Positions 17,443 through 60,465 of a DNA stretch of 64,000 nt are shown one piece after another (positions within the stretch are counted from its first letter, which is position 1; each line of letters opens with the position of its first letter). The notes under the pieces were generated by a model, which searched no databases, had not been told where the DNA came from, and was given only the letters and a program-made list of their open reading frames with translations. Made by a program: the position numbers and the translations under genes. Source of the DNA: Chiloscyllium plagiosum (Eukaryota); the NCBI RefSeq assembly GCF_004010195.1, contig NC_057759.1, forward strand, positions 6,861,853-6,925,852. Direction: 5' to 3'.

Positions 17443-18383
17443 TTTCAAAGCTTGTGAGAAGATTTGTAGCTCGGGTGCTCGTTGTTGTCGTTCTGTTCGC
17501 CGAGCTGGGAGTTTGTGTTGCAGACGTTTGGTCCCCTGTCTAGGTGACATCCTCAGTGCTTGAGAACCTCCTGTGAAGCGCTTCTGTGATGTTTCCTCCG
17601 GCATTTATAGTGATTTGTACTGCTGCTTCCGGTTGTCAGTTCCAGCTATCCACTGCAGTGGTCGGTGTATTGGGTCCAGGTCGATGTGCTTATTGATTGA
17701 ATTTGTGGATGAATGCCATGCCTCTAGGAATTCCCTGGCTGTTCTCTGTTTGGATTATCCTATAATAGTAGTGTTGTCCCAGTCGAACTCATGTTGCTTA
17801 TCATCTGAGTGTGTGGCTACTGAGGATAGCTGGTCATGTTGTTTCGTGGTTAGTTGGTGTTCATGGATGCGGATCATTAGCTGCCTTCCTGTTTGTCCTA
17901 TGTAGTGTTTTGTGCAAAACCAATGTAGTGTACAAAATCCCATGCAAGGACTGCACAAAACACTACATAGGACAAACAGGAAGACAGCTAATGATCCGCA
18001 TCCATGAACACCAACTAGCCACGAAACGACACGACCAGCTATCTTTAATAGCCACACACTCAGATGACAAGCAACATGAGTTCGACTCAGACAACACTAC
18101 TATTATAGGACAAGCCAAACGGAGAACAGCCAGGGAATTCCTAGAGGCATGGCATTCATCCACAGATTCAATCAATAAGCACATCGACCTGGACCCAATA
18201 AACCGACCGCTGCAGCGGACAGCTGGAACTGACAACCGGAAGCGGGATTCAAATCACTATAAATGCCGGAGGAAACATCACAGAAGCGCTTCACAGGAGG
18301 CTCCCAAGCACTGAGGATGTCACCCAGACAGGGGACGAAACGTCTGCAACACAAATTCCCAGCTTGGCGAACAGAAACACAAC
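17443..18383. mobile_element. Penelope-like (Poseidon-type) inverted-repeat insertion carrying the GIY-YIG region (family 3)
   Basis: Arms 17443-17916 (-) and 17917-18383 (+). The + arm encodes KTNVVYKIPCKDCTKHYIGQTGRQLMIRIHEH..REFLEAWHS..IN. 13-bp TSD AGTGGACCATGGT at 17430-17442 and 18384-18396. Confidence 0.93.
18308..18347 (+). ncRNA. Minimal hammerhead ribozyme motif (PLE-associated)
   Basis: GCA-CTGAGGA-TGTCACCCAGACAGGGGAC-GAAA-CGTC-TGC: conserved core, 3-bp helix I (GCA/TGC), palindromic ACGT helix III and a GUC cleavage triplet. Confidence 0.75.
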
Positions 18384-19254
18384 AGTGGACCATGGTGTCT
18401 GAGATGAAATGGTCTCCTTGGAATGCTGGCATGCGAGAAAGACGAAAATGGTTATGCAGTGGCATCCCGCGGGAGGTGGTGGGCATAGCAACTTTTTCTC
18501 CTTCGTATACAGATGTGCTGAAAGTGAGGAGCAGGGAACACGATCATTGTAGCGGGAGGTGAAGGAAGATGTGAGGGCAAATACATGGGTAAAGGCTCGG
18601 AGATAGCTCAGTTGCCTGTCGTCGTGTTAGCTGGAGTGACAAAAAAAATCACGTTTCTGAGCCACACCTAGACAAGGTAGCATCTTCAAAGCAGATGCAA
18701 TGGAGATGGAGAAATGGAATGGAATGTTGCCCTTAGACGAAACCAAGTGTGAGGTTGTAAAGCTCAGGACGTTGTGCCATTCAATGTGTTAGTAATCATA
18801 TTCCTGGTCAGCCTATTCTTGGTACAGAAACAGAGATCATAAGAAAGAAAACTGAGGCTTTCGAGATTAACGAGGTGATCGTGATCATGGTGGAAATTAA
18901 CAACTTGTTTTCTGCAATTCCACACGACAGAGGGAAGTGGAACAAGTCATCCAATTGATGTACTGGAGGAAGAGATTTGGGGAGGCACCCAAGTAGAATT
19001 AGAAGGAGGAATCTTCCACAAAATAGACAAAACAAAATTGGACAGAGCTGGCATCAATTCTGGTGCTCAGCCAAACCATTGAATTGAAGAAAGTTTCGCA
19101 AGTTAGAATAGAGCTTATTAAAGGTGAGGACAAAAGCGGCAGGATGGAGGAAGATGCTGACCAGTGGGTTTGGGTCAGGTCTTCTCGTATTTTTAGTTTT
19201 CTACTTTAATATCTTTGGAACATAGACTTTATAATTAATCAATTATAACTAAAT

Positions 19255-21490: not shown

Positions 21491-21832
21491 TAGACCATTA
21501 CACTGAATATCCTGCATGCTGTTATTAAAATAAGAGAATTGTCTCACGATATTATGACAATTGTATCGAGACGGTTTAGAGTTTGTCGCATTCATTTGTA
21601 TTCAGGATAAACTGGATATTTTTTCCAAATTGGTGAAGTGAGGCAGAAAATTAAACAATGTGAAATTGTGATACTGCATGTCTCCTCGATCTAACGGAAG
21701 AAATGGACTCTTTCTCAACTCTGAAACTGCGACTGATCGCTTTAAAAATAATCATAGTCATTTCGGGAATCTGAATGAGAGATAAATGGAGAGTGCGTGG
21801 AAAATGAAGACGTCTCCACTGCTGACACTCAC

Positions 21833-21850
21833 AAACTGAAAGGGTAATAT
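21833..21850 (-). other. Candidate 18-nt micro-exon
   Basis: ctcacttacAG|ATATTACCCTTTCAGTTT|GTGAGT; frame-preserving, phase 1-1 reading xITLSV. Confidence 0.3.
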
Positions 21851-24910: not shown

Positions 24911-26504
24911 AGTGATGTACACTTTCACCTAAGGGGAGAGGCTGGAAATATACTGGGGCCTTTTTCCCTGCAGCATCACAGGCTAAAAGAGGTTCTTATA
25001 CAGGTTTACAAAATCATGAAGGGCGTGAAGAGAATGAGTACCTAAAATCTTTATTTTCCAAGGTATGGGAGTCTAAACTACACAGCATAGGGTTAAGGTG
25101 TAAGTTGAAAAGATTTAAAAGGGAAGAAAGGGGCAATATTTTCCTGCCGAGCGTGGCAGTTTATGGATGAGCTGCCAGAGGAAGTGGTGCAGGCTGGTTC
25201 AATTAATGCATTTTAAAGACATCTCAATGAGTCGACGAATACGATGGGTTTGGAGAGATATGGGTCAAGCGCTGACAAATATGTCTGGGTTAATTTGGAA
25301 TATCTGGTCAGTATAGACGAGATGGACTGAAGGGTTTGTTTCCAATTTAATTATATATTTCCTAAATCAGGGTGATCAGAACTGCACACAGTACTCGAGA
25401 AGCAGTCTCACCCAAACTCCGGTACAAACTTAACATGTCGTCTCAATTTCTATATTCAAAGATAAGATCGACAAAAAACAGCATGCGAAACGGCTTCTCT
25501 ACCACCCTGTCTCCGTGTGACACACATTTAAAAGAATTATGTATCTGAACCTCCAGATCTCTCTGTTCTACAACACTACCCATGGCCTTGCCATGAATTA
25601 CACTTCTTGCAAGTTAATTGACAGACATGGACAGAGACTTTGTCTGTTTGGAATGGTGACCGAGTAGGGATCATGATTGCGTACGCCAGGTAATTCATCT
25701 GGAACTTTGTAAAATTTTAGCATGCTTGCCTCACTAGTAAGTATGCTCAGCATAAGAGTTGGTATGCAATTTTGGAGCTGTACAAATTGGAAATCTGGAA
25801 ATCTGGCCCAATTTGGAAATCTGTGAGCAATTCTCTAACCCTTCTATATAACGAATATTCAATTTTGGGGGCTGTTGAAAAGATTTACATGGATGTGACA
25901 GGCGCTGGGGAAATTGAACGACTGGAGAGGCTGAATAGGTGGCTTTTATCCTGGAGAGTCAGAATCTGAGGGGTAACTTTACAGAGGTTTATAATTTCAC
26001 GAGGGGCATTCATAGTGTGAATAGCTGAGGAGTTTTTATTCCTCGGGTGGAGAAATCTAGTAAGAGGCAACAGGTTTAAGTTGAGAGGGGAAAGACTGAG
26101 AAAGGACCTCAGAACAATTTTTTTTCATGTTGAGGTTATAGTGTGTATGGAACTGGAGGAGCTAATGTAGGAAATGTATAACATGGGAAAGACATCTGCA
26201 AGAGTCCATGAGTACGGAAGGTTTAGGGAGATTCTGTATATAACAAATGCTGGCAAATGGGATTATGTTGACCAGTGTGGATTAATTGGACAGAACGGTT
26301 TGTTTCCCAGCTGTACTACACTATGGCTATATAAAATGCAACTGTTTAACTGGAATTTATGACTTCAATAAGTGTATGTAACAAAAGTTATCAGTTGAGA
26401 ACTGTAGAATGATGAATCTCTCTCACACTCCTTTGTATAATGTCAAATTGATGGACGTGTTCTATGTTTTATTATCAAGCAGCAATCTCTTCATCGTATC
26501 TTAC

Positions 26505-26533
26505 GACGCAATACAATCAATCAGAATCATCAC
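26505..26533 (-). other. Candidate 29-nt exon downstream of the intact Ig exon
   Basis: ttctcttttgacAG|GTGATGATTCTGATTGA..GTC|GTAAGA; if spliced to the Ig exon it reads RDDSD-stop. Confidence 0.3.
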
Positions 26534-27841
26534 CTGTCAAAAGAGAAAGTTAAATTTGTCAGCAAGGCTTATCAAGCATGTGTTCGTTTCTCTATGACGT
26601 TTGGATTAATTTACTAGATTATCTAGCTGCATTTTATTACAAACGTCTTCGCAGCTCACAAGATATATTTGCACTCTGCACATTGTTATTTTTCATCCAA
26701 TGCGTTTGTTTAGAATTGTGATATTTGTTCGTGAACATGTATCTGTCTTTATTATTCAATTCTTTTGTTTTGAGGTTATTAACATAGCGGAAGAATTGAA
26801 ATAATGCTGGATATTGAAAAGAGAGTGTTATTGGACTTATTTTGAAATTACAACACTTTTCTTCCACTTATCAGCAAAAAAAAGTCACAAATAGGAAGTC
26901 GCCAATTCTGCCATAATGAAACTATTGTGCATGCATCTACTTCCGTTGATATTTCTGTTATCATTGTATAAGTGAACGCTTTATATTATAAATTCCATGA
27001 CATTTAGCACCAGGGCTCGCTAATTTTTTTTTTCATTGCATTTTTTACACCAAATATCAATGATCGGAAACAGAAGCATGCTATTGTTATTTTAATAATT
27101 TTACAATTGCGGCATTAATTACTAATACCATTTCAATACAGAACATCCTAAACTTTATAAAGTTTCGAGTTTCTTCTTCCGAATATTACAGTTTCATTCT
27201 TGGTTCAGACATAAACTTTAAAAAAAATCATGTGCATTCTCTACTAAATTAAGAAAATGTAGAGGATAAATCGCAATCTAATCACTTTTTTGTGAATAAT
27301 GACAAAAAGGATTAGATGACTAAATTTAATTCTCTACAAGATATATCACTGAATGTGACTTAAGGTAGTGACATCTTAGCAGTTTTTAGCTGCTTTATTA
27401 ATTGTTTGAGTAATCGCCTTTTTTGAAATGCTGCATTATTTGATTCATTAATGAGTTAGTTAATTTGGTTATCGTTGATTAAAGGTTATTTGATTTATTG
27501 ATTCGTACAGTGGTTGATTTTTTTTTGGCTCATTCACAAATGTATTCAGTACATCATCAATTGATGCATGGATTCATAGCCATAATCAGTGGTTTTATGT
27601 TCAATCAATCAATCAATCAATCATTCTTCTCTTGAAGCTTGCATTATTTCTGCATTCTTAATTATTACACCTGTCGGCAATTTACCGAAATAGAATATCA
27701 AAATTATTTTTGGTTTTACATCTGTATTCCATTGCTATGCCAGTATAAATCAAAAAATACAGCGTCTGGTATCTGCTAAATTTGAAACAGAAACAGTTCC
27801 TGTTGTGCCGAATAAAGAGTGGTTCTGTGAATCTTACTAAC

Positions 27842-28138
27842 GTTTAAAAGTTATCAAAATGGGATCACTACGAGACGAGTTTAGCAACCGTCCATATAGA
27901 TATGCTTCATACAGGCAGGTGTACGTTTCTCTTTCCATCTGCCCGACGTTCTTCAACTCGAAGGTCGCAGAATTGCGAAATACATGAATAGCCTGAATAT
28001 CCATATAATTTGCTTCCACGATCCTCGATAAATAGAATACAATTCCGCTGAATTTCCAAGGGGCAGTGCAGTTCAAAATGATTCCTCCATTCTTACCAAT
28101 AGGAAGAAAATTTTCTGATATGATTGGTTTCGGTAGAT
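27842..28138 (-). CDS. Intact Ig-superfamily C2-type domain exon (LILR/IGSF1/A1BG-like receptor)
   Basis: 297 nt, phase 1-1, acceptor ttcttcttacAG and donor GTTAGT. Translates DLPKPIISENFLPIGKNGGIILNCTAPWKFSGIVFYLSRIVEANYMDIQAIHVFRNSATFELKNVGQMERETYTCLYEAYLYGRLLNSSRSDPILITFK, with two Ig cysteines, FYL, ATF, YxCxY and SxxSDP. Confidence 0.85.
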
Positions 28139-28353
28139 CTGTAAGAAGAAAACAGAAATCAAGTAATGGCAATTAAATACAAGTGAAATAAATTCAATTT
28201 TGATATATTACGGACGTGGACACTGCTATATGACATGAAATAAAAGTCGTATTTGCAGCATATATGGAAGCCGGTAATGTATTAAATTCGAGAGGAAGTT
28301 GGTTATACTGTCAAGAGGATTTCTTCATTTTAACTGAAATCTACTGCATTCAC

Positions 28354-28402
28354 CTGCAAACTGTGAAATGATTCTCGGAGCACTAGAATTAATAGGATGG
28401 AT
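28354..28402 (-). CDS. Candidate small (leader or linker) exon upstream of the Ig exon
   Basis: ttttgctattttttcAG|49 nt|GTGAAT; IHPINSSAPRIISQFA ends in phase 1, in frame with the Ig exon across a ~215-nt intron. Confidence 0.5.
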
Positions 28403-29019
28403 CTGAAAAAATAGCAAAAGAAGTTTTATGATATGGGAATGTGGTTTTGTTTCCAGCTTTAGGTACACCATTGTGATATAATTTGAAAAGCTTAAACAAT
28501 TAAATATTCGACTGTCAATCAAAATCTGTTTTCTGAATTCTCATAAAACACTTCTGAGATCTACAAATGGAATATTGCTTCCATTTCAAGGAATTATACC
28601 GCAGAGGTCAAAGCTAAGTCTTGGGGTTTAATTGGGTAGCAAATCCAAGTTGTTCAAAGTTGAGATTTGCATAATGTTTGAACCATTCTATCATTCACTA
28701 ACGCATTCACGGTGAGACCAGTATTCCATATGAGGCTAAGAATACTGGGAATGCCGTGAATGCAATAAGTTCATTCATGTGCGAAGAAAATTACGCAGAA
28801 GGGTCAAGGACGATAAGAAAATAAACTCTTTTTTTGGAAGATATCGATTTAAGGCAAAATCTTTACTTTATTTTTGATTGTGTGAAAAATCAGCTTTTGA
28901 GTTCAGCTCAATATTTTTCGCTTTCCAAAGCACACATTCGAAATCCATTACTGCAGAGAAACTGTCAGCAGTTGAGCATGGAAGTAATTTCATCGTACAC
29001 TAATATTGCTGGACCAAAT

Positions 29020-30725
29020 GTTATCATACGGAAACAGACAGCCAAACCAATCAGCCTTTCTATCTTTGTCTTTTTAGCACAATAAAATAAAATTATTGAA
29101 GACCCCCCGTATAGCAGCTACAATAATTCGAAAGCATAATTTTGTATAACCAAATCATAGTCTACGAATAGTTATTTTCTGTAGTTTAATCCGTGACATA
29201 ACTACTTATTAAGTACATAATATCTTTAGCACGGACAAAAATTAAAAAAAAAACAACGGGGTAAGCTGATTAACCCCTGCTCTTAAACCTGTAATTTTTT
29301 TTCAGAACCATTCAAATAAAAGGACACGTGGACAATCAAGCACGGTAAAGGGACACATGAAGGAAAGTAGAAAACTGCAGAGATTAGTTAAATGTTCTTC
29401 ATTATGAATTCCATGGCAACTTTACTTTCGAAAATATTGATCAGGATCACTTTCTCCGTTCGCCCAGGCAGAATTATCAATACTTCTAACTGAGTTTCCT
29501 ATTCTTTTGGCTTCCTGGTGCTGGTACATTAGATTAGGCAGGGTGCTTTCAAATGATTAAATTTTCTCTGTGGAAAGAAAATCTGCTAATCTCCCTTTGT
29601 TTTAACAAAACAAAGTTCACATAACTCTGGATTCCTTTGGAATATGGAGCAAACTCTCAGCATCTCCTCTGCAAAATCTCCTACAAACTCTTTGTTAGAT
29701 GTTTCAACGTGTTATATGTTTTGCAGAACCAGAATTAATACAGTGACAATTTTTTAAAAAATGATAAATTGTGATATATGTGGTAATCCTGTCGGTTTAC
29801 GAATAATAGAAGTTTTAGGGTCGAAGTGCACAAATTTTTAGCAATAGCAAGAATTTCTATGACATAATTTGGAAAGCGTGACCTGTCGAACATTGAATTA
29901 AAATTAAAAGAATGTTTTGCTTTTAAGTTTTGATTTAATATTGTTCCTTCTCAGCAGGACACATTGGTAAAGAGACATTGTCAATAATTGAATATGGGGA
30001 TAGTTTCACAGGATACCACTACTGTTACATCAAATATTAAAATACAGAGACAGGCAGCCAAACTAAATAAGCCATCTCTATCTTTGTCTTCGCAGCGCAG
30101 CAAAATTAAACAATGAAGACCACCAAATCGTCACTCCAATGATACTACACCGTAATTTAGAATAACTAAATGCCAGAAGCTGTGAATAATTATTTGTAAT
30201 CTAATCTAATCTAATCTACCTTTGTCTTCGCAGCGCAGCAAAATTAAACAATTGAAGACCACCAAATCGTCACTCCAATGATACTACACCGTAATTTAGA
30301 ATAACTAAATGCCAGAAGCTGTGAATAATTATTTATCCGATAACGCTTTTCTGTCTAAACCATGATACTTATCAATTCATTAGTTGCAGGAGATCTTTAA
30401 CAGAGAGAAAATTACGCAAAGTTAAAGTTATCAGCATCTCTGCTTTAAATCCGAAAAAATATTTTTTGACCCATTAACAGAAAATTCACGCAGAGAAACA
30501 ACTGCATGAATGGATTAAAACCTGGCCAGATTAGAACATTACCCTACACAATGCATTGCTTCATAGGTATAAATTTGCATTCCAAAATTGCCTTGCTTTC
30601 CAAAACCTTGATCAGGTTTCTCTTCTCAGTTCAACCAGGCAAAGACAGAAATACTTCTCAATTCATTTCCAACTCTTAGAGCTCATGTGGACTGGTTTAT
30701 CAGATTAGGCAGAGAGCTTTCATGT
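29020..30725. repeat. Old diverged direct duplication (about 29020-29555 vs about 30040-30725)
   Basis: Shared blocks CAGCCAAAC..CTATCTTTGTCTT..TGAAGACC, TTGATCAGG..CCAGGCA..AATACTTCT and AGATTAGGCAG..GCTTTCA. Confidence 0.75.
30082..30334 (+). repeat. ~114-bp near-perfect duplication flanking a 24-nt (TAATC)n tail
   Basis: 30082-30195 matches 30220-30334 (1 indel); the spacer is GTAATCTAATCTAATCTAATCTAC. Confidence 0.9.
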
Positions 30726-31164
30726 CTTCTTCCTGTTTGAGCAGTTCTCCACAACCATATCTCAGAATACAAAGACCAATGATTCAACTTCAAATTCTGT
30801 TGCCAATCTCATATACTGAAGTTTCAAATTCATTCAATTGCATTGAACATTTGGTTTCGTTCAGACTTTCCAGACACAATTCCCAGATACAGAAATTATT
30901 CATAGCTACCTTCTGTAACAGTTTGAGCACAATGTTCTTCCAGAGCGTTGTATGTCTGGTATTGGCTTTCAGACCATGACTTACAAACAAACTTTCTTTA
31001 TTGGATGTTTTTCCTTAATTTACAAGACAAATCCTCTCAAAGTTCACCAGTTATTTCCAACTCATAATTCAAACACGAAAAAGAATACAAATAAATTAAT
31101 GACAATTCAGCCAGGGCGCATAACAGAAGCCCACATCAACATTACGAACTAATCAATGAAATTG

Positions 31165-31265
31165 ACCTTCATTCCTGATGAAGGGTTTTTGCCCGAACGT
31201 CGATTTTGCCTGTCCTCGGATGCTGCCTGAATTGCTGTGCTCTTCCAGCACCACTGATCCAGAAT
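31165..31265 (+). mobile_element. Penelope terminal fragment with a degenerate hammerhead
   Basis: TTC-CTGATGA-AGGGTTTTTGCCC-GAA-CGTC-GA (one core A missing) followed by GGATGCTGCCTGA..TTCCAGCA. Confidence 0.7.
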
Positions 31266-31377
31266 TCAATTTTAATAGTCAGTTATCCAAATTGCCCTAC
31301 TCGAAATTGTGACAACCGAAAATTCACTGATTTATGAAAAAAGACTCTGTGTTTTAACAGACGTTGGATGTTTATAT

Positions 31378-31577
31378 TGATTAGATTACTTACAGTGTGG
31401 AAACAGGTCCTTCGGTCCAGCAAGTCCACACCGACTCACAACCGACCCAGACCTTTACCCCTTCACCGAACATGGGGAGAATATACAAACTTCACACACA
31501 AAGTCGCCTAGGAATTGATTCCGGGTTGCTGGCGCTGTCAAGCAGCAGTGCTAACCATTGTGCCACCATGCCACCCA
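31378..31577 (-). mobile_element. HE1-type SINE, internally deleted
   Basis: Tail TTAGATTACTTACAGTGTGGAAACAGG and head GCAGCAGTGCTAACCATTGTGCCACC are present; the middle is missing. Confidence 0.85.
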
Positions 31578-32271
31578 AAGACTTTGGTCAGTTTACGAAG
31601 AAACTTGCAATGTTCTCCTTCAAGGAAATTTTATGAGAGGTCATTTCTTGTATATTACTGTCAAACGTATGAGCTTCAGCAACTGACTGTCAGGGTGGAA
31701 TGGAGTTTATTATTGTTATCTCCTCCAGTACATATGCGGCAGTTGATTAATCAAAGATGACATCTCCGGTGTGTCAAAGTCAAAAGAGGACGAAAATTTC
31801 TTTGGAATGGTGTAGAAACTCATAGCATAAGTTCCAATTGTTCGTTTCTAAAGTGAAGAGTTCATGTTGGACATAGGGATCCAATGGAAGGGAATTTATT
31901 CTCTCGCTGAGGTAACACATTTACACGATGTTGAGCCATATACTTACTGTGAAAAACCAGGGGCCTTGAAAAACTTAATACTTCCGGCTTGTTTTGGCTT
32001 AAAGTACGAGAGTTAATGAATATTGACTTGTCGGCCAACTAATGCCAATTTGCAATCTGGCAACAAGTTGATCTGATCTTAGAAATTTGAAATAATTTTG
32101 TCAGTGTAGACTTATATGAGATGAAAGCATCTTTCCATCAATGTTAGTAATCTGTCAAAAACAGCCACTGTTCTAATCAGTTAATGCAGGAGATCAATTG
32201 AATCATGAACTGTCAATAATAGACTGATCTTGGAGAAAGTAAATAAACCATCCTTCTTCGCTGTCACTCAC

Positions 32272-32556
32272 CTATTACAGTAGCATTCATATTCTCACTT
32301 AGCTGGGATTGTAACCATCTTCCAATGACGAAAGTTTCATATTGGCATTGATACAATCCCGTGAACCACACCTGACTGATGGGAAAAGTGCCAGTGTTGT
32401 TCACTGCGATGATTTGGTCAGCGGATAATATTTGAATTCCTTCCCAAATTTAAAGCATTTGTCACGACAATCAGCAAGAGCATTACACGTAATGGTGACT
32501 GATTCTCCCATGGCATTCAATCCAGTTGACTGATCAAGAGAAATTGTTGGCTTCAT
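32272..32556 (-). pseudogene. Ig C2-type pseudo-exon
   Basis: KPTISLDQSTGLNAMGESVTITCNALADCRDKCFKF-(1-nt frameshift)-QILSADQIIAVNNTGTFPISQVWFTGLYQCQYETFVIGRWLQSQLSENMNATVI|GTGAGT; the acceptor was lost at the duplication junction. Confidence 0.85.
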
Positions 32557-33323
32557 TTTGTTTGTTTACTAAACAAATTGTAATGTTGTCCTTCAAGGAA
32601 ATTTTATGAGAGGGCAGTTGCTGTTTATTTCTGTCAAAAGTATGAGCTTTAGCAGCTCACTGTCTGGGTGGAATGAAATTCATTACTATTATCTCTCCTA
32701 TTAAATATGCAGCAGTTTATTAATCAAGTGACATCTCCGGTGTTATCGCTGTGTCATAAGTAAAAAGAGGACGATAGTTACTTTGGAATGGTGTAGGAAC
32801 TCAACATAAATTCTGATTGTTCACTTCTGAATTGGAGAGTTCATGTTGGTCTCTTGCTGAGGTATCACATTTACACGATATTTGGCTATTATTAATTAAG
32901 ACAACTGAATGATATTCAGGCTGTAACACCAAAGATTTGCTGAGTGGCCTCTCCTGTCCTCTATAACATTATATTCTAAAATGCTCAATTCAGTGAACAC
33001 TCGGAAGAGCAGGAGCCATATACCTATTGTGAATAATCACTGACTTGAAAAAAAATGTATTTCTTCTGTATATTTTGGCTTAACAACATTTGAGCTAACA
33101 TATATTGACTTGGTGGCCAACTAATGCCAAGTTGCAATCAGGCAATAGTTGTGTCTGGGTGGACGTGCATGAGATGAAAGCATTTTAACATCAGTGTTAG
33201 TAATCTGTCCACATCAGCCACTCTTCTATCAAGCAATGCAGTCGAACAATTGAATCATGAACTGTCAATAATAGCCTGATTCTGGAGAAAGCACATAAAT
33301 GCTCATTCTTTGCTGTCACTCAC

Positions 33324-33927
33324 CTATTACAGTAACATTCACATTCTCGCTCAGCTGGGATTCTAACCATCTTCCATTGACAAAAGTTTCATATTGGCAT
33401 GGATACAATCCCGTCAATTTAGATTAGATTAGATTAGATTACAGTGTGGAAACAGGCCCTTCGGCCCAACGATTCCACACCGACCTGTCGAAGCGGAACC
33501 GACCCATACCCCTACATTTACCCCTTACCTAACATTACGGGCAATTTAGCATGGCCAATTCACCTGACCTGCACATCTTTGGACTGTGGGAGGAAACCGC
33601 AGCACCCGGAGGAAACACACGCAGACACGGGGAGAACGTACAGACTCCACACAGTCAGTCGCCTGAGGCGTGAATTGAACCAGGGTCTCAGGCGCTGTGA
33701 GGCAGCAGTGCCACCGTGCCGCCCACAACTTCACCTGAGTAACGGGAAAATGCCACTGTTTTTCACTGCGATGAGTTGGTCAGCGGATAATATTTGACTC
33801 CCTTTCAAAAATTTTAAATTTTTGTCACCATAATCAGCAAGAGCATTACATGTAATAGTGACTGATTCTCCTATGGCATACAATCCAGTTGACTGGTCAA
33901 GAGAAATTGTCGGCTTCAGTAGAGGCT
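33324..33927 (-). pseudogene. Ig C2-type pseudo-exon disrupted by a SINE and a 1-nt deletion
   Basis: ctgctgcAG|PLLKPTISLDQSTGLYAIGESVTITCNALADYGDKNLKFLKGSQILSADQLIAVKNSG-(fs)-FPVTQVKL-[SINE]-TGLYPCQYETFVNGRWLESQLSENVNVTVI|GTGAGT. Confidence 0.88.
33421..33725 (-). mobile_element. HE1-type V-SINE inside an Ig exon
   Basis: Full head to (TAATC)n tail; flanked by CAATTT/CAACTT, a near-TSD. Confidence 0.93.
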
Positions 33928-35050
33928 CTGCAGCAGAACAGGTAAAATCAAGATTTAGAAATAAGTATTTTGTGGGTTTTTTTCGTCTACACTAGAATTG
34001 TTACTGAAATCCGTATTCACCAATACTGAAGAAATTTGTTTACTTCAGATGTTTTCTTATCTATGTCGCACCTGTCAGCAGTATGCGCCAATTGCATAAT
34101 GCAACTAATAATCAATCAGGTGATTTTCTTGTAACGTTTCATTGGTGCAATTGGAAATTTAAGGCTATGGGAAAATACGAATTGAGATTGCAATCACAAG
34201 TTCAGATTTCAGACCAAAAAGAAAAAGAAATATTCTTGCTCATATGTAGACAGCATATGAAATGAACTTGTTCAAAGATTCCTATTTCAAACGTAATTGA
34301 AAATGAAAGCTTGTGACCTATTTCAAAGACAAAATAATTGAAAGAATTATCTTGGTCTCATCCAAGTAACTCCCTTTGAGAATATTTAGCCACCATACCA
34401 TCTACCCTGGTCACTTTGACAACTGTCAACAATGAAGATCTGTGTCTGATATTCAGCACTGACTCAGCGTTACATTAACAGTGAAAGTTTATTCGATTCC
34501 TCACTGTCATGCCAGTATTGGCTTTAGTTATTAAATTACTAATCCTGTATTGAGACTTAATAAGCAACATGAGAATTAAAAAAAAACTGTGGATACTTCC
34601 AGTCTAAAACAATGGCATAAATTGATGGTGAAACACGATCGCCTAGTTGCATCTGTGGAGATTAAGCAAGAGTCAATGTTTCGGGTTCAGTAGGCCTTCT
34701 TCAGAAACCAGTTCTCCATCAATTTTTGCTTGTCTTTGCAACAGTAGCATTTATTCGTATGTCTTCACTTCAAATCTAAAGGATTCCCATCTGATTAATC
34801 GGGCAACTAAAAGATACCATTCCATGTTGTTAGAGATGTTCTTATGACTAAACTATTTTACTCCTTCCAAGGCTAATATCTGATCCTTAACACAGCATCC
34901 AAGAATTGTTAACTAGAACTGCCGTTGGGATAGGGTAACGGTGTAAAAGTATTTCCCCTCTCTTTTGAGTTGTGTCCTCTATACCTGTATAAGTTGTCAT
35001 AAGGATCCGAGTTAAGAATCATCTCCATTAATCATTAACTTGCAATGCAA

Positions 35051-35368
35051 TTAGATTAGATTAGATTACTTACAGTGTGGAAACAGGCCCTTCGGCCCAA
35101 CAAGTCCACACCGACCAGCCGAAGCGCAACCCACCCATACCCCTACATCTACCCCTTACCTAACACTACTGGCAATTTAGCATGGCCAATTCACCTGACC
35201 TGCACATCTTTGGACTGTGGGAGGAAACCGGAGCACCCGGAGGAAACCCACGCAGACACGGGGAGAATGTGCAAACTCCACACAGTCAGTCGCCTGAGGC
35301 AGGAATTGATCGCGGGTCTCTGGCGGTGTGAGGCAGCAGTGTTAACCACTGTGCCACCGTGCCGCCCA
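35051..35368 (-). mobile_element. HE1-type V-SINE, full length
   Basis: GGGCGGCACGGTGGCACAGTGGTTAAC head, V-domain and (TAATC)n tail. Confidence 0.95.
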
Positions 35369-35550
35369 CAAATGTCAACAGTTGCATTCAAGGTAATTAT
35401 TAATTAGTTTGCCAGAACTTCAATGTCAGATTGGAAAAAAACAACCTCTCAGTCAGAATAGAATACTTCAACTCTGAAACAAGAGCTGGATTCGGTTTTT
35501 TTAAACGTACTGACTGTGTTTGCGATAAAATGTTATTCCCCTTCACTCAT

Positions 35551-35830
35551 CCTCTGTAGTGATAGGTCAAGTTTCACTGAGTTTGGACATTAACTGCTTT
35601 CCATTTACAGAGCTTGCGTATTTGCATTCGTACAGCTCTTCCTAGCTCATGCTGACGCCTGTGTATATTCCAATGTTATCTTTTTCGATAAATTGAGGAG
35701 CGTTCTGTCGTTGATTGTACTTGTAAAAGTAGATTTCATCATGGTTGCCTTTACTAATTTTGCACGTAATGGTCACCATTTCTCTTGATAGATATACTCG
35801 GGATATACTCTTGATAGATATACTCAGTGG
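35551..35830 (-). pseudogene. Ig C2-type pseudo-exon (more diverged paralog)
   Basis: VYLSREMVTITCKISKGNHDEIYFYKYNQRQNAPQFIEKDNIGIYTGVSMS*EELYECKYASSVNGKQLMSKLSET*PITTE; two stops, donor mutated to ATGAGT, and an 18-bp internal duplication at 35782-35825. Confidence 0.8.
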
Positions 35831-37227
35831 ATCAGTGGGAAATTAAATGCAATAATAGAGACACAGAAAGTGATCTGTGAACGTTGTAATAGATGTTTAA
35901 AGATGGTAACTAAACAAAGTTTGTGTTGTTTTCAAGGGAAGTTGTGCAATGGTCATTGAAACTCTCCAAACGGAAAATACAAGCTTGCATTTGGAAAGTG
36001 CTATGGATCAGAGCAAGCCGCTTCAAAATATATCAAGGAGTAAGCCGAGATTTTAAATTTTAACTTAATTGCAAGCAAGTCAAAGACGCTGTGTTCCACA
36101 AGTAATGCGATTGGTCCAGCATTGGGCTTTATATAAAATAAATGTTATTCTTAAAACACAGCTAACATACAAATAAAACGCAGAAGAATACGTTTAGCTC
36201 TGTCGAAATACTGTTAAAATTATTCAACCACGATTAGTAAACCGTTCCAACATAGCAGCAACCCATATACAAACATTTGGCAGAGGCAAATTCAGAAAAC
36301 AAGTTTTTCTCACTTGCTGCCTCTCTTCCAATCCAGGAGAAGTTAACACTGAAAGAACGATCTCGCAGGAGAGAGACAGCTCAAGCTTTTTTTCTCTGGA
36401 GCAGAGAAAGAGAGCTGTGCCCAGCAGCTTCTACACCCAATTCCATATCATTCTTCTACCACCAAACCTCCATAGTCCTTCATTAAAGTCGGCTAACGTA
36501 TTGGCAGCTACATTCTGCGTTCCTTCCACGTTTATAATTTTCAAATTCAATTGCTTTAGCAATGGTGTCCATCTAAATAGTCTGCTGTTTTTTTTCTCCT
36601 AGGATTTCAAAGGGTTATGATCAGTTTTTATAATTGTCTGACATATTTTACTTGCAATACCAATGTTGAAATATTGCAACGCCACAATCAAACTCAACGT
36701 CTTTTTTTTTAATGGTTGAACATTCCTTTTGATGGATGTTCAGCATTTGAGAGAAATTGCCAAAAGCTTTGTTTTCTATCATCTCGTTGACTTCTTATAA
36801 GGGTATAGCACTAACACCCACATCACTCGCATTGATACCCACTTTAAAAAGCTCTGCATTATTACGTATTGCTAACACCATAGCAATTATCAACACAGAT
36901 TTCAGGGTGGCAAATGCCTTCTGTCACTTTTCCGTCCATTGAAAGTTTTTCCACTACTTCAACACGTCATTCAGTGGAGAATCCACACTGAAATATGACT
37001 TGGGTTTTTGTAAAATTTCTCCTAACCAGATTTAATACTAAGTCTGCCTCCCGAAGTTGGTTGAACAATTCTATTGGATGTTCAGAATGTTCCCTGCCCA
37101 TGAGACTAGAAATTAGTCAGGAGAATGTGTATACCATATAATTCAGTGATCCCAAAATTATCTTATTAGTTAGATTTTCTGATGTGGCTGCCATATTTCT
37201 CATACCAAATGGCATTAAATTGAACTG

Positions 37228-37605
37228 CTGAGGGTGACCTTATAAAGATTTACAAAATTTGAGGTACATGGATAGGATAAATAGACAAAGTCTTTTGCCT
37301 AGGGTTGAGGAGTCCAGAACTAAAGGGCATTGGCTTAGGTTGAGAAGGGAAAGATATAAAAGGGACCTAAAGGGCAACATTTTCATGCAGAGAGTGGTAC
37401 GTGTATGAATGAGCTGCCAGAGGATGTGGTGGAGGCTGGTACAATTGCAACATGTAAGAGGCATTTGGACGGGTATAGGAAGGGTTTGGAGGGATATGGG
37501 CTGTGTGCTGGCAGGTGGGACTAGATTGGGCTGAGATATCTGGTCGGTATAGACAGGTTGGACCGAAGGGTCTGTTTCTATGCTGTACATCTCTATGACT
37601 CTATG
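37228..37605 (+). mobile_element. CR1 3' end inserted in the RT of element A
   Basis: CTGAGGGTGACCTTATAAAGATT.. through to a CTCTATGACTCTATG tail. Confidence 0.88.
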
Positions 37606-38891
37606 TAAAGTCATTCAGTTTCATGAAAGCCCAAAGTATCTTAGTTCCTTTGAATAAAGGGACGTACCTCTACCCTCTAAGCAAGTTCAGCATGGAAATG
37701 TAAGTTGCTTGTCAAATCTTCTGAATATGGACTTCGGCTACGTGAAATAGGGTACCAATTGGATTTCATAATTGCATAATAGCCCACACACAATCGTTGG
37801 GGGCCACATGGTTTTTGCACCATCGCTATGAATAAGCTGCATTTGCTGTAGCTCCTTTTGATTATGTTGTTACTGAGCATGTGTTCAATTTCTTTTTGAA
37901 ACTGTGGCAATTTCAGTTGGTTGTTTCTTTGTGGATGTTGATTAATCAGAAGAGAATTTCCTCTCTATGCATTATCTGCAATCAGTTAAGTACTTCCCAG
38001 CTTATTTCCATATATCTGTCTGCGTGATTATAGTAACTTCATAAGGTCATTTCGATTTTTCACTGGAAGGTAACCCAATAATTTATCACAATGTTTGAGA
38101 ACTTCATTTATGTTCAATTTAACTTGAGAAATTTCAAATTCGTAATCATCTGGATTTGAGTCTTCAAACTGAATTGTAAATAGGAACACATTCTCCCTTG
38201 GCTTTCCTGGCCTATGAAAATGCCATTTGCATATTCACACGACAGACTTCGTGAGTTTTCCTACCATGTAGGGTTCTCATTAAATAATTCATCTCACTTA
38301 ATTTCATTTCGAATTGCAAAGGCCCAATAATCTTTGCTTTTAAAGGTTCGTCTACATAGCATAGGAATGTTAACACTGTATGTCCATTAGTGGAACTTCA
38401 CATTTTTGATTGCTTGTTTGCTTTCTGTTTGATCACGTTCTGGGGTACTTTATAAAGCTGTTTAGCCAACTCACCCATCTCTCTAACATTTGACACACAG
38501 TCCAAAAATATAGTCTCTTAACTCTGGATCAGCAATTTGTCCTCAATTAAATTAAGAGGCCCTCTCACCTGATGTCTGCAAACTAATCCAAACGGACTGT
38601 CTTGAATTGATTCATTATGTGAATCACTAATTATATAAAAAAAGTATGCATTGCATTATTTTACACCAATGTTTTGGAGGCTGTTGATAATAGGCCCTCA
38701 ACATGGTCTTTAATATCTGATGCTACCGTTCCAATGCTTGCTGTAATTCTGGATAGTATGCATTTGATTTAAATAGTATTACACTGAAGCTATCCATAAC
38801 TTCCATGAATAATTTGATGTAAAAATTTATTCAATTGAATCTCTGTCGGTGGTCCTCATTGAATTTGTAAAAATGACGTGCCTCCATCAAA

Positions 38892-39181
38892 GGCGGCACT
38901 GCTGCATCACAGCGCCAGAGACCCGGGTTCAATTCCCTACTCAGGCGACTGACTGTGTGGAGTTTGCACGTTCTCCCCGTGTCTGCGTGGGTTTCCTCCG
39001 GGTGCTCCGGTTTCCTCCCACAGTCCAAAGATGTGCAGGTCAGGTGAATTGGCCATGCTAAATTGCCCGTAGTGTTAGGTAAGGGGTAAATGTAGGGGTA
39101 TGGGTGGGTTGCGCTTCAGCGGGGCGTTGTGGACTTGTTGGGCCGAAGGGCCTTTTTCCACACTGTAAGTAATCTAATCTA
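38892..39181 (+). mobile_element. HE1-type V-SINE
   Basis: B-box GGTTCAATTCCC, V-domain and a GTAAGTAATCTAATCT tail. Confidence 0.93.
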
Positions 39182-40959
39182 AAACTTTTAGCCACAGTGT
39201 TGTGTAATGGAATGGCTTATAATAGACACTGCATAATTGTCAACAAATACTGATTTGCAATTTTTGTTTTAGAGTGGCCACGATGCAATCAATTAAGACT
39301 CTTGCAAAAAAAGATTCTCAAATGCTGGGGTACTTATTAAGGGTGCGGAGGTTTCCTTATTTCTTGACATATCTGGTAAAATTCAAACACTTCTCAACAT
39401 GTCTGGGCCAATAAAAATATTTTGCTAGTTTGGGTGAATTTTTTCTTACTCCCACATTAACTCCTCCTGATAACTCATGCGACCCAGAACACATCTTTTC
39501 TGTAAACCACTGGTAATACAACTTGATGAACTTTTGCCCATTTTCTTCCAGCAATATATGTGTAGGACCCCATTTCTCGTCAGAACTTCCTTTTCAAGAT
39601 TGGATGCACTCTGATTCTTCCTCTGTGTACACCTTTTGATGCAACGACTTTATTTGTCGTCTTTCAGTTGTAATTCAGGTCACATCTCGGAAATAAAAAA
39701 GAAATCTACCTTATCCTTCATCCTGTTCTCGTTTTCTTAATCATTGTATCAAACAGTTTATGAGAATTAAGCGTCAACTTCCTTGTCTTTTACTCTGACA
39801 TCTCTTCCTGTTTCAAATTACACGTTGTGACTATGCTTCGACCCAGACAGAAATAAATCCCAGGATATACTTCTGGAATACCGCAGTTTAAAAAAAAAAT
39901 CCACTGAAGTTTCAATCAGAGGAATCATCAGTCTAACCTGTGATCCAGCTGTATCATTACCAAAGCTGAACCGTACGTTCAAAACAAATGATTTCTCTGT
40001 TACTCTTGTCACAAAACTGGTCTGTTTTTATTTTGAAAAGCTGTTGGTTTTCTCAAGAGTACTGTGTTGTTGATTCTTTTCCGAGCGGTTGCAAAAGACT
40101 CCAGGTTCCAAAACGGCTGGGTTTGGTATAGAGATAAAAGGGTATTGATAGGCCTCTTTGTTTATACTTGAACAGATGAGACTTTAGCCCAAAGCTTTTA
40201 TTTTTAGAAGTGACTTCATAATGAAAGGGGAGCGGCCAGTCTGGAAACTGGAGTTAAGTTAGAGTCAGTTCAGGTGTGGAGCGGTGTGGAAACAGGCTGC
40301 TGAACTCTCTCTCCATCTGTCCTTCCAACATAGACCTGTAAGGTTTTGTTTCTTTTTTTTTGCTCTCTGCTTAAGTGGTTTGTTTATTTTGTTACGACAC
40401 GGGGTAAATTCTCCAGCTTAATTTAAAACCAGCAACACAGAAAAGATTGATCCCGTGCAGTAATCTGTGAAAATTCGATATCCAATAATTAGTTAAAGTA
40501 AAAGGTAAAGACTATATACTTAAAGTATACCAGAGAATAACTATTTACAGTACCCAATCTTTTACCTTCGCTTCCATAATACTAATCCGATAAAATTCCC
40601 GACTATGATTTACAATATAAAACATCTGATCTCAAAACCAGGCACCTTTTATTCTTCTCTGTATTTCGGTCTTCTTTTTTTCTTCTATAGGATTCTTTTT
40701 CGCAGGTTACGGAGCGATAAAGGCACGTTTAAGGTACATATTTTTCAGGCAGTCATTTTAAATGCTGATAGTTTGTCGGTTCTCCTCTCAGCTGTTCAAT
40801 TTTACTCTGTCTTATAATCCCAAAGCATCGGATTGTAGATTGACTTTGAAGATTGTCAATATACCAATTTCAAACTGGTTTGAAATTTGGTACTTTTGGG
40901 GTATAATTTAAATTAATTGGCCGAATTCAAATCTCTTCTGTCATTTCCAGGCAACCCTC

Positions 40960-41183
40960 AAATACCCCTTCACCTAACACTACGGGCAATTTAGCATGGC
41001 CAATTCACCTGACCTGCACATCTTTGAACTGTGGGAGGAAACTGGAGCACCCGGAGGAAACCCACGCAGACACGGGGAGAATGTGCAAACTCCACACAGA
41101 GAGTCGCCTGATGCGGGAATTGAACCCGGGTCTCTGGCGCTGTGAGGCAGCAGTGCTAACCACTGTGGCACCGTGCCACCCCC
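40960..41183 (-). mobile_element. HE1-type SINE, 3'-truncated
   Basis: Head and V-domain are present; it sits at the inner edge of the left LTR of element B. Confidence 0.9.
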
Positions 41184-42827
41184 GTGTAGCTATATATATC
41201 TATATATTTAACATTAAATAAAAACAAAGCTCATATAAACTCTGTCATTTAAATCCGGTGATACCGCATCTATGATTACATTCTTTCGACCTGCAACATG
41301 TATGATTTTTACATTAAACGTCTGTAACACAAGAATCCAACTAAATAGTCTCTTATTCTTGTGTTTAAAGTCTTCTAAGAATGTAAGCAGATTGTGATCC
41401 ATATACGTAACTGTCTCCGATTGTTCATGACATACGCATTAAAATGTTTTAAGGCCAGTACCAATCTCTATAGTTCCTTTTCGACTGTGGAGGATTTCCT
41501 CTGATGGATGTTGATCTTCTTCGAAAAATAACTAACTGACAGTTCAATCACATCCTCATCTTCCTGTAGGTGTACAGCTCCAACGCCAATGTCACTAGCA
41601 TCAATCGCGACTTTAAAATGTTTTGAGAAGTTTGGTGAAACTAAACCTGGTTTGATGGTTAACATGGCTTTCAAATAGTGGAATGCCTCCTGGCATGTTT
41701 CTGGCCACCGAAGCGTTGTGTTCTTCTTCAGCAAATTGGTCAACGGTACCACTACACTGCTAAAGATTGAAGCAAATTTCCCAAAAAAATCATTGAGTCA
41801 TAAGAATCGAAGCACAGCTTCCTTCGTGGTCGGTCGTGGAAATTCCTATGGCCTTCATCTTTTCAATCTCTGCGGTCAAAATTCCATGAATGATGTTATG
41901 TCCCAAGAACATAACTACTGCTTTCGTGAATTCCTTTTTTTCTCAAGTTTATTACCAGTTTTGCTTCTCGTAGTCGGTCAAATAGCTCTGCCAACTGTAC
42001 CATGTGATATTTCCAGGGCTTACAAAAGATCACTACATCGTCCAAATAGTCGGCACAGTTTGATAACCCAGACGCAACTCTGTTCATATGTCTTGGGAAT
42101 GTGGTAGATGTGTTCATCAATACAAAAGGGCGTCATTGAAACTCATATAGCACATTTGGGGTCACAGCCACAGAAATATCTTTCACTGTTTCTGATAAAG
42201 TTATCAGACAGTAACCACGCATTAAATCCAACTTTCTGATGTAACTGGCTTGTCTGACTTTCTCAATGCAGGCCTCCAATCCAGCAATTGGATATGAGTC
42301 CGACTTTGTAACGGTGTTGGCCTTCTGATAATTCACGTAGAATCATTGAATCTCATTTGTTTTAGGAAATAAGAGTATTGGCGAACTCGACAAGCCATGT
42401 CTGGCTTTGAAAGGATAAAGCCGATAGGGGTGTTGTTTGGTTGGAGCAGTTTTACTTATGTCGACTTCATGTTTAATAGCATTAATCCTCCTTGTCTGAT
42501 TCTTACTTATGTCCTTATACAGCAGTAATAAAATCTTTCAACCGCATTTTATGTTCTTGAGACACATAGCTGACGAACCTACCCCACTCCTCAAAGACTT
42601 CTTCATTTATTAATGTATTTTGAGACACTTCAAAATGCACATAATCTGTATTTGATTCCTCACTCTGTGGTCAGCAACTAACACCTTTTTCTTCAGTTCT
42701 TTCTCTCTGGCATAATACGGTTTCAACATGTTCACATGTCATACCTTACATATTTATTTTTCGATCTGGCATCTTTATTAGATCGTTCACCTGACTCAAC
42801 TTTTTCTCAATTTGATAGGGACCACTA

Positions 42828-56942: not shown

Positions 56943-57009
56943 ATGAGGAAAGTGTGTCCAGCAGGCTAAGATAAAAGGTAGGGAGGAGGGACTTGGGGGA
57001 GGGGCGTTG

Positions 57010-57720
57010 NNNNNNNNNNNNNNNNNNNNNNNNNNNNNNNNNNNNNNNNNNNNNNNNNNNNNNNNNNNNNNNNNNNNNNNNNNNNNNNNNNNNNNNNNNN
57101 NNNNNNNNNNNNNNNNNNNNNNNNNNNNNNNNNNNNNNNNNNNNNNNNNNNNNNNNNNNNNNNNNNNNNNNNNNNNNNNNNNNNNNNNNNNNNNNNNNNN
57201 NNNNNNNNNNNNNNNNNNNNNNNNNNNNNNNNNNNNNNNNNNNNNNNNNNNNNNNNNNNNNNNNNNNNNNNNNNNNNNNNNNNNNNNNNNNNNNNNNNNN
57301 NNNNNNNNNNNNNNNNNNNNNNNNNNNNNNNNNNNNNNNNNNNNNNNNNNNNNNNNNNNNNNNNNNNNNNNNNNNNNNNNNNNNNNNNNNNNNNNNNNNN
57401 NNNNNNNNNNNNNNNNNNNNNNNNNNNNNNNNNNNNNNNNNNNNNNNNNNNNNNNNNNNNNNNNNNNNNNNNNNNNNNNNNNNNNNNNNNNNNNNNNNNN
57501 NNNNNNNNNNNNNNNNNNNNNNNNNNNNNNNNNNNNNNNNNNNNNNNNNNNNNNNNNNNNNNNNNNNNNNNNNNNNNNNNNNNNNNNNNNNNNNNNNNNN
57601 NNNNNNNNNNNNNNNNNNNNNNNNNNNNNNNNNNNNNNNNNNNNNNNNNNNNNNNNNNNNNNNNNNNNNNNNNNNNNNNNNNNNNNNNNNNNNNNNNNNN
57701 NNNNNNNNNNNNNNNNNNNN
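57010..57720. other. Assembly gap (N run)
   Basis: 711 N bases. Confidence 1.
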
Positions 57721-58830
57721 CGAAGGAATTGTGAGAATGGGATGGCGTTTTTACAGGGGGCAGGGTGGGAGGAGGTGTAGTCCAGGTAGCTGTGGGAGTC
57801 GGTCGGTTTGTAGTAGATGTCCGTGTTGATTCGGTCGCCTGAGATAGAAATAGAAAGGTCGAAGAAGGGGAGGGAGGAATCTGAGACTGTCCAGGTGAAT
57901 TTAAGGTCGGGGTGGATGGTGTTGGTGAAGTGGATGAACTGTTCAACCTCCTCGTGGGGATGAACTGTTCAACCGCCTCATGTAATGTTCTATGTTGTTT
58001 ATCTAGAGCAAATATCAAGCAAACAGTGATTAAAGTACATTGTGTCTATTTATATATTTATTATTTTTGAAATGAGTATGTAATTCCACCTTGAATAAAA
58101 TAAATTAAACAACATCTAAAAAAAACGCTGCTGTAAACGAACAGAAGGATTTGGTATATACTCAATTACGTACACAATTACAAGACAATTAATCCAATTT
58201 TAAAAAATCTTTTAGCGTTCAGTTTAACATGACCTCATAACTCAATAACGAAATGTCCTAAATTACGATCAATTTTACACACATTTTGAGAGAATTTAAG
58301 ATTGTTAGTAAAGCCATGGATATTTGGTTTTATAAGATCTGGCCTTAAAAAAAAGGTGCATCAAAGGAGAGGATACTTTTAAAGTCGTTATTATTTCCTG
58401 TTCACAATTATAAAGCCCTTTGTCAAAGGAAATCAACAAATATCCTTTGAAATTTACCTAAGTGACGTATGTTATTAAGTTATTTTGCAGAACATTGCCC
58501 ATACTGTGAGCAGAACCATAACTCTTTTCACTGGTGATAGAAAGGCATTGAGAACAATACCTCTTCATTAAGTCAACATTAAGCCCAGCACATGACCCTC
58601 GACTGCCAACCCCTCGAATGAGGAAAATCTGAGATTCCTGTTCATATCTGTCTACTTGGCCACGATTACGATTGACTACGATTAACAGACCCCATCAGGG
58701 AATCCATATTCAATGAGATCCACCTGACCAACTCCGTTCTAATCACTACAACTGCAAGTCCGTTTGTTTTTTTTTTCAATTTCATTGATGTGACACGGTC
58801 ATTGTTGGCTGACCAATATTTATTGCCATA

Positions 58831-59760: not shown

Positions 59761-59846
59761 ATATAACCTGTTCAAAGTTTGTGCTAAGATTTGTAGCTCG
59801 GGTGCTCGTTGTTGTGGTTCTGTTCGCAGAGCTGGAAGTTTTTGTT

Positions 59847-59886
59847 GCAAACGTTTCATCCCCTGGCTAGGCGACATCATCAGTGC
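59847..59886 (-). ncRNA. Minimal hammerhead motif (left arm)
   Basis: Reverse complement GCA-CTGATGA-TGTCGCCTAGCCAGGGGAT-GAAA-CGTT-TGC. Confidence 0.65.
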
Positions 59887-60376
59887 TTGGGAGCCTCCTG
59901 CGAAGCGCTCCTTTGATGTTTCCTCCGGTGTTTATAGTGGTCTGTCCCTGCCGCTTCCGGTTGTCAGTTTCAGCTGTCCGCTGTAGTGGTTGGTATATTG
60001 GGTCCAGGTCGATGTGTTTGTTGATGGAGTTTGTGGATGAATACCATGCCTCTAGGAATTCCCTGGCTGTCCTCTGTCTGGCTTGCCCTATGATAGTAGT
60101 GTTGTCCCAGTCAAATTCACACACACGCAGACAACAAGCAACATAAATTCGACTGGGACAACACTACTATAATAGGGCAAGCCAGACAGAGAACAGCCAG
60201 GGAATTCCTAGAGGCATGGCATTCATCCACAAACTCCATCAACAAACACATCGACCTGGACCCAATATACCAACCACTACAGCGGACAGCTGAAACTGAC
60301 AACCGGAAGCGGCAGGGACAGACCACTACAAACACCGGAGGAAACATCAAAGAAGCGCTTCGCAGGAGGCTCCCAA

Positions 60377-60416
60377 GCACTGATGATGTCGCCTAGCCAG
60401 GGGACGAAACGTTTGC
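60377..60416 (+). ncRNA. Minimal hammerhead motif (right arm)
   Basis: GCA-CTGATGA-TGTCGCCTAGCCAGGGGAC-GAAA-CGTT-TGC; GUU cleavage triplet. Confidence 0.72.
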
Positions 60417-60465
60417 AACAAAAACTTCCAGCTCGGCGAACAGAACCACAACAATATAACCTGTT

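Follow-up and report, generated by a model that had tools for sequence, protein, structure and literature searches.

Four immunoglobulin exons of a probably decaying immune-receptor gene in the shark Chiloscyllium plagiosum

We analysed a stretch of 64,000 nucleotides from Chiloscyllium plagiosum (contig NC_057759.1, positions 6,861,853 to 6,925,852), hereafter named the window, in which four related immunoglobulin (Ig) exons, E1 to E4, lie on the minus strand. With a probability of roughly 0.7, they belong to a single shark gene for a multi-Ig immune receptor, now decaying into a pseudogene, and are the last four of its exons for outer domains. The best reading is that E4 outlived E1, E2 and E3 and is now dying.

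Four related exons and their lesions

A first-pass annotation of the window had proposed four related minus-strand Ig exons sharing a C-terminal motif, with three of them inactivated by different lesions (a frameshift in E3, a SINE plus a frameshift in E2, two stops plus a dead donor in E1). All of this was borne out, at the same positions and in the order E1, E2, E3, E4. The features are the following (LRC, leukocyte receptor complex; SINE, short interspersed element):

35551..35832, minus strand: E1, outer-type (type 2) C2 Ig exon, dead; 38% identity to relative P0018, E 3e-18
33324..33927, minus strand: E2, outer-type Ig exon with a one-base loss and a SINE; 46% identity to P0018, E 4e-21
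33419..33728, minus strand: SINE inside E2, 7-8% diverged from three other copies in the window
32272..32555, minus strand: E3, copy of E2 (89% identity), no acceptor, one-base loss, good donor
31583..33918, minus strand: intragenic tandem duplication of an exon and its following intron, unit 33918-32556 being repeated as 32555-31583
27842..28138, minus strand: E4, membrane-proximal-type (type 4) LRC-like C2 Ig exon, open in the assembly (P0001, C23-C74)

The shared motif, Y-x-C-x-Y...G[RK]...S-x-x-S, has four matches in the six frames of the window, one per exon, and none in each of 40 shuffles of the window; it is present in 221 of 705 domains of related proteins. A domain profile made from these relatives only recovers all four exons (best piece of each at E 2e-10 or better), and finds no further Ig match below E 1 in the window.

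In E1, stops are found at 35642-35644 and 35567-35569, and the donor GT has become AT. Beyond the lesions first annotated, its acceptor position reads TG instead of the expected AG; its start holds a short tandem repeat. The frame of E2 is broken by a one-base loss near 33750, acceptor and donor being good. E3 has lost one base near 32449 and lacks any acceptor, intron sequence standing in place of its first ~10 bases. In the assembly, E4 is flanked by an AG acceptor and a GT donor, both in phase 1, and stays open over 98 codons. The arrangement of one phase-1/1 exon per Ig domain is a weak criterion for the LRC, since it is common to most genes of the Ig superfamily (IgSF). Two donor-like GTAAGA sites rival the true E4 donor, one at 28096 (inside E4, 42 bases in, in phase), the other at 27837 (4 bases downstream, out of phase).

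The exons match consecutive domains of one gene

A phmmer search of 1.84 billion proteins with E4 gave 119 matches, 30 of which were looked up. The 20 chosen as closest to E4 are all from sharks or rays, in agreement with the cartilaginous-fish origin first proposed, and bear automatic names such as IGSF1-like, FcRL5, LILRA6, CEACAM5-like or uncharacterized. The other ten, chosen mostly as likely outsiders, come from three cartilaginous fish, a lizard, two turtles, two frogs and a grouper, one being unnamed.

Inside the same proteins, two domain types are matched, one by E1 to E3 (38-46% identity) and the other by E4 (at most 43%). Domain order was counted in the 40 relatives in which a domain could be classified. 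Outer-type domains have another domain after them in 49 of 56 cases and E4-type domains are last in 26 of 37; an E4-type domain directly follows an outer-type one at 15 junctions, and the reverse order never occurs. A transmembrane segment (TM) comes after the last domain in 12 of the 15 models with such a junction, three of these 12 being isoforms of P0052. The best relative, XP_067837063.1, has a single E4-type domain after five outer ones, and then a TM. The order of exons in the window is that of the relatives, outer domains preceding the E4-type one. A quick tree (132 domain rows by 98 columns, from 25 chosen proteins and the four exons, without mammalian LILR, FcRL or LITR reference rows) placed E4 inside a 16-row clade of terminal domains from shark and ray proteins, with a Shimodaira-Hasegawa-like approximate likelihood ratio (SH-aLRT) support of 97, and E1 to E3 inside a clade of outer domains (SH-aLRT 91). 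Because exon types and order match both the domain order and the tree clades of the relatives, the four exons are most likely, as far as sequence comparison can tell, the end of one ectodomain and not four genes.

The locus had first been described as a tandem cluster of separate LRC-like receptor genes undergoing birth and death, one alive and three dead. Four related exons do lie inside 8 kb, and the family forms clusters elsewhere, with four named sawfish models on a contig of equal length (5.27 Mb) and seven Scyliorhinus torazame members likewise (87.9 Mb). However, the exon types and order fit one gene, the duplication that made E3 is intragenic with a unit of merely 1.0-1.4 kb, and no leader, TM or tail exon was found between the four exons. 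Nor was any found in the window, 28 kb on either side of the exons, by scans with little power to detect exons that are short or have decayed. Contigs of three other samples (X4, X5 and X7) were aligned at 80% likeness to 25345-30070, that is, to the E4 region only; in X4, the only run with a contig spanning this stretch, a single contig covers E4 at this likeness of at least 80%, with no second E4 copy. A gene cluster is therefore very unlikely, and largely refuted for these four exons; birth and death fits exons within a gene, not a cluster of genes.

History of the E2/E3 duplication

E2 and E3 differ by 11% in their exons and 19% in their introns (p 0.005), with a ratio of nonsynonymous to synonymous differences (pN/pS) of 0.57, which is not significant (p 0.14). 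Because the exons diverged less than the introns, both copies were probably in use for a time after the duplication. That E3 was dead from birth is less likely in view of the same two figures, and a later loss of its acceptor, or gene conversion, fits better. The history of the locus may then have been as follows. An exon-plus-intron unit of 1.0-1.4 kb would have been duplicated, E2 giving E3, and both copies would have stayed under constraint for a while. The outer exons E1 to E3 would then have died through separate lesions, and E4, under constraint longest, would now have a common null allele. Duplication of exon units would be the way this family varies its number of outer domains, which ranges from 1 to 6 in relatives.

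Another duplication, old (~70%), links 28955-29551 to 29971-30722, with a recent 139-base tandem doubling in one copy (30077-30334). It gave no Ig signal in the profile search, and contig depth is higher there, suggesting a repeat.

E4 is probably a dying allele

The first-pass annotation had called E4 intact, which holds in the assembly only, since the contigs of three other samples point to a net loss of 10 bases. The X5 contig has 251 letters over 261 places and the X7 contig 285 over 295, with 10 gap letters each; both cross the two E4 borders unspliced, and so behave as DNA. In X4, one contig spans the stretch; it differs in 32 letters and has 28 gap letters, which is what an allele would show, and it is the sole X4 contig at the E4 sites of single-nucleotide polymorphism (SNP). 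The bin 27873-28030 falls entirely inside E4, and its mean depth amounts to 148/158 of that of the contig in each sample (9.18/9.8, 8.43/8.99 and 14.7/15.7 for X4, X5 and X7, respectively). Lengths and depth together indicate a net 10-base loss within 27873-28030, common to all three samples that cover E4, read in X4 from depth alone. Anywhere in this bin, such a loss leads to a stop within codons 58-91. Because the E4 allele of the assembly aligns to relatives almost without gaps, the loss appears to be the derived state. What had been called an intact exon is probably an allele on its way out.

E4 looks eroded as well. Its end branch in the quick tree measures 1.01, for a median of 0.38 and 1.08 for the dead E1. 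It scores 83 bits, the lowest, against leave-one-out scores of 109-142 for its 10 closest relatives, and lies mid-range in a wider set of 23 relatives (85 bits vs 69-128). At four consensus positions it holds residues not seen in these 23 relatives, and it has no match to Pfam Ig_2 or Ig_3, each of which is matched by 22 of 23 aligned relatives. A word-based search of a 90%-clustered protein collection returned no protein sharing enough words with E4.

Several points weigh against a decaying gene. The 10-base loss is deduced, and the indel itself is not among the 12 of 32 indels listed; the samples are few (three), and contigs drop rare alleles. Five of the eight listed E4 SNP sites are synonymous, for 22-30% expected (p 0.016-0.058; 30 SNPs of the stretch are unlisted), which argues for recent constraint. 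The chance that a neutral exon stays open with intact splice signals at both ends would be only 24% at 4% divergence and 5% at 8%. Carpet sharks are absent from the relatives named among the 30 of 119 matches looked up, so that the branch length and low score of E4 may partly reflect lineage distance. Finally, shark introns can be long, and leader and TM exons may lie beyond the window, or have escaped the TM and leader scans, which are of low power for decayed or short exons.

In another reading, a shortened gene is alive: the dead outer exons would be skipped, and the open E4 allele would be spliced to distant leader and TM exons, or read through its donor to a stop and secreted, the loss being a functional/null polymorphism. 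Such polymorphism is known in KIR and LILR genes, with null alleles of KIR2DS4 and LILRA3. The open frame and both splice sites of E4 in the assembly would be expected of a live gene, as would the synonymous lean of its SNPs and the retention of both cysteines and all invariant columns, in a predicted fold with a local distance difference score (pLDDT) of 84. Models also exist of short relatives in which a single E4-type domain is joined to a TM (P0059, P0063), though these may be incomplete, and a leader-like open stretch with a phase-1 donor end (28354-28471) lies 215 bases upstream of E4. However, the core of this stretch comes from a pyrimidine tract and is unlike the leaders of the family, no TM match lies within 27.8 kb downstream of E4, the four unseen residues stand at consensus positions, and the frameshifting loss is deduced in all three samples covering E4. 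A live gene is thus possible but doubtful, and we favour decay of E4.

Some further observations touch on this region. In X4, five listed SNPs fall in the 297-base E4 and ~27 in the other 4.4 kb, so that the exon looks more variable than its flanks. Reads of a single-cell run (X13), of which ~6% was searched, gave no hit on 25345-30070, which is no test of expression; no RNA data set was listed as covering 27400-28600. The minus-strand stretch 28354-28471 starts with ATG, has a short hydrophobic core and ends on a phase-1 GT donor; alternatively, it could hold a 49-base exon with an acceptor at 28403. Also on the minus strand, acceptors at 26533-26470 and ~21770-21740 would give short phase-1 tails ending in a stop, one then followed by AATAAA and one with two tyrosines, and an 18-base stretch at 21849-21832 has both splice sites. 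These small-exon candidates (28354-28402, acceptor 26533, 21832-21849, acceptor ~21770) gave no match to family leaders, TMs or tails, and are unproven. A TM-like match at 39524-39571 (E 0.03) was rejected, as it lies inside remains of a Gypsy-type pol region.

In intact relatives, the gene would encode a type I surface receptor, in which a leader is followed by outer C2 domains in variable number, a single E4-type domain by the membrane and a TM helix. According to the relatives' models, the receptor would end either in a tail with two motifs like the immunoreceptor tyrosine-based inhibitory motif (ITIM) or with a TM arginine. Its product would act as a paired leukocyte receptor of the LILR/FcRL/LITR type. 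The first-pass annotation had reported no TM or ITIM exon in the window; none was found here either, and it is the relatives' models that add the two-ITIM-like tails and the TM arginine.

Relation to the LRC and FcRL families

A profile of the E4 type, built from E4 and 23 relatives, places PIR-B first (143 bits; best domains 36.5), then LILRB2, LILRB1, LILRA6 and LILRB3, so that six PIR-B/LILR chains lead. FCRL5 comes next with 99 bits summed, without any single stretch passing, and CEA, titin and NCAM likewise have no single passing stretch. An AlphaFold model of E4, made from a 24-row alignment (pLDDT 84), forms an Ig sandwich, for which Foldseek ranks OSCAR first (E 3e-4, TM score 0.71). 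Upon structural re-comparison of this model, OSCAR (Z 12.5, root-mean-square deviation 2.5, 87 aligned) and PECAM-1 (Z 12.4, deviation 1.9, 91 aligned) came out level, and LILRB1, IL-7R alpha, CHIR-AB1 and KIRs tie with them within about 1 Z. No FcR/FcRL chain is among the 50 rows of this comparison, which does not exclude FcR/FcRL. Clusters of the ESM Atlas at 0.91-0.93 are KIR3DX1, IGSF1-like, A1BG and FCRL2. A PDB search and a fold from the single sequence were uninformative. By profile and predicted fold, E4 appears closest to PIR-B, LILR and OSCAR, PECAM-1 tying in Z. The sole Pfam match of E4 is PF17737 (HIDE1, C19orf38), at E 0.0036 and 18 bits, below the cut-off of 23.2; 22 of 24 alignment rows match it.

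The outer domains give another picture. Searched as two whole relatives, FCRL5 comes first by a wide margin (99 vs 39-63 bits, summed). With a 9-row outer-domain profile, FCRL5 reaches 62 bits over 9 domains vs 59 over 6 for PIR-B, Fc-epsilon-RI and Fc-gamma-RI being close behind LILRs; per domain, these scores are 12.5 bits for FCRL5 and 14.3 for PIR-B. The E2 fragment alone is uninformative in this comparison. The domain type of E1 to E3 would accordingly be a tie between FcRL/FcR and LILR. The shark outer and E4 types are clearly related (hhalign 99.6%).

The LRC-type C2 hallmarks first annotated therefore stand for E4, in which F-x-L, A-x-F and SxxSDP are visible in alignments with LILRB2 and PIR-B, but not for E1 to E3, where F/Y-x-F/Y-x-K replaces F-x-L. 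In the same way, the assignment to an LRC-like family (LILR/KIR/OSCAR/IGSF1/A1BG) holds for the domain type of E4, whereas E1 to E3 lack the LRC marks and tie with FcRL in type.

The LRC likeness could also be convergent, the exons coming from an unrelated IgSF adhesion family of the CEACAM, CD22, PECAM or NCAM type. Some relatives are indeed automatically named CEACAM5-like, PECAM-like or CD166-like, PECAM-1 ties with OSCAR in Z, and in the quick tree the fork joining shark domains to tetrapod LRC rows has a support of 45. Yet the six PIR-B/LILR chains top the E4-type profile, with single domains to 36.5 bits, where CEA, titin and NCAM fail; the relatives come in paired inhibitory and Arg-TM forms, and the phmmer matches include tetrapod receptors of the NxxR type. 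An adhesion origin is thus extremely unlikely.

Rest of the window

No other host gene was recognised in the window, the rest of which we take to be repeats: SINEs, pieces of long interspersed elements and a decayed Gypsy-type element at ~36300-42800. The Gypsy-type pieces of this long terminal repeat retrotransposon (36300-42800, minus strand; reverse transcriptase, RNase H and integrase-like, apparently from more than one copy) lie immediately upstream of E1, the place in which any additional exons of the gene should be found. An element with long inverted repeats occurs in two copies, 17444-18384 and 59771-60454, with arms of 292-309 bases, 94-97% complementary and 28-35 bases apart. A run of N at ~56990-57750, 21 kb upstream of E1, is an assembly gap. 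A search of 27000-37000 against Rfam gave no match.

A family annotated in sharks and rays

Automatic RefSeq models of the family exist for no fewer than 12 species of sharks and rays, among them members of inhibitory and activating type. A TM is modelled in 19 of 22 relatives examined; ITIM-like motifs occur in 8, and 3 combine an early Arg with a late Glu in the TM, without NxxR. In the latter (P0022, P0024 and P0051), the activating-type Arg is near the TM start and the Glu 18 residues later, with neither NxxR nor DYT; the spacing is 17 in the NxxR-type P0102. The same domain types are seen in P0002, P0003, P0031 and P0104, respectively a 25-domain sawfish protein, a shark DMBT1-like protein, a three-domain frog HIDE1 and a turtle "FcRL5" array. 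Judged by sequence likeness, the domain family extends well beyond sharks.

The available text of PMC4016189 (2014) reports neither FcRL nor C2-only LRC homologues in shark genomes. In the part of PMC6557307 (2019) consulted, the time of origin of the family is given as unclear, automatic LRC-type names in non-mammals as misleading and exon shuffling as common; the LRC TM is described there with an Arg and a C-terminal acidic residue, and that part does not mention sharks. PMC4810170, likewise in its available part, describes LITRs as paired receptors that are distant kin of both FcR/FcRL and LRC. Nothing of relevance came from PMC4701786. No description of the shark family was found in the literature searched, in which subscription journals were mostly missing and which did not extend to supplements, where shark members might be listed.

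The locus is most likely a member, now turning into a pseudogene, of a family that has been annotated but not studied, and which by analogy may work like a paired LILR/FcRL/LITR-type system. The locus itself, likely a dying gene, matters little, and adds a case in which exons were duplicated and decay, and in which a null allele is common. The family matters more: if a proper tree and synteny confirm it, LRC/FcRL-type paired receptors would exist at the base of jawed vertebrates. A broader scenario, which we consider unlikely, is that a paired activating/inhibitory receptor family older than the LRC/FcRL split persists in sharks and rays, its membrane-proximal domain being LRC-like and its outer domains intermediate between FcRL and LILR, and that the locus shows KIR-style evolution, the gene having shed its outer domains to live on as a one-domain or secreted form with functional and null alleles segregating.

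Comparison with known systems

The closest known systems are chondrichthyan multi-Ig models:

XP_067837063.1: Heptranchias, "IGSF1-like"
XP_041036010.1: Carcharodon, "LILRA6"
XP_078069591.1 and XP_078059674.1: Mustelus, "FcRL5"
XP_078414810.1: Cetorhinus
XP_072345310.1: Scyliorhinus

They have the same two domain types in the same order, with 38-46% identity per domain (E 1e-17 to 1e-21) and in supported clades. They mostly have TM and tail exons, whereas at the locus no such exons were found, E1 to E3 are dead and E4 appears polymorphic for a frameshift. None is a close orthologue of the locus, the best identity to E4 being 43%.

HIDE1 (PF17737) is the sole Pfam match of E4, below the cut-off, and the frog HIDE1 domains form their own clade. 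FCRL5 and Fc receptors come first by summed score for whole relatives (99 bits) and with the outer-domain profile (62 vs 59 for PIR-B), but FCRL5 ties with PIR-B per outer domain, and no FCRL5 stretch passes for the E4 type.

The mammalian LRC (PIR-B, LILRB1/B2/B3/A6, OSCAR, KIR, FCAR, NKp46), together with chicken CHIR-AB1, is the best match of the E4-type profile and model. It shares one phase-1/1 exon per domain, and the shark relatives come in two-ITIM and Arg-TM forms, with an acidic residue near the end of the Arg-TM as in the LRC TM described in the accessible part of PMC6557307. However, identity to the shark domains is ~20-26%, the shark Arg-TMs have neither DYT nor NxxR, and no supported tree grouping unites these proteins with the shark domains. 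Going by their published description, the teleost LITRs (PMC4810170, in its available part) would present the same double likeness to FcR/FcRL and LRC as the shark domains.

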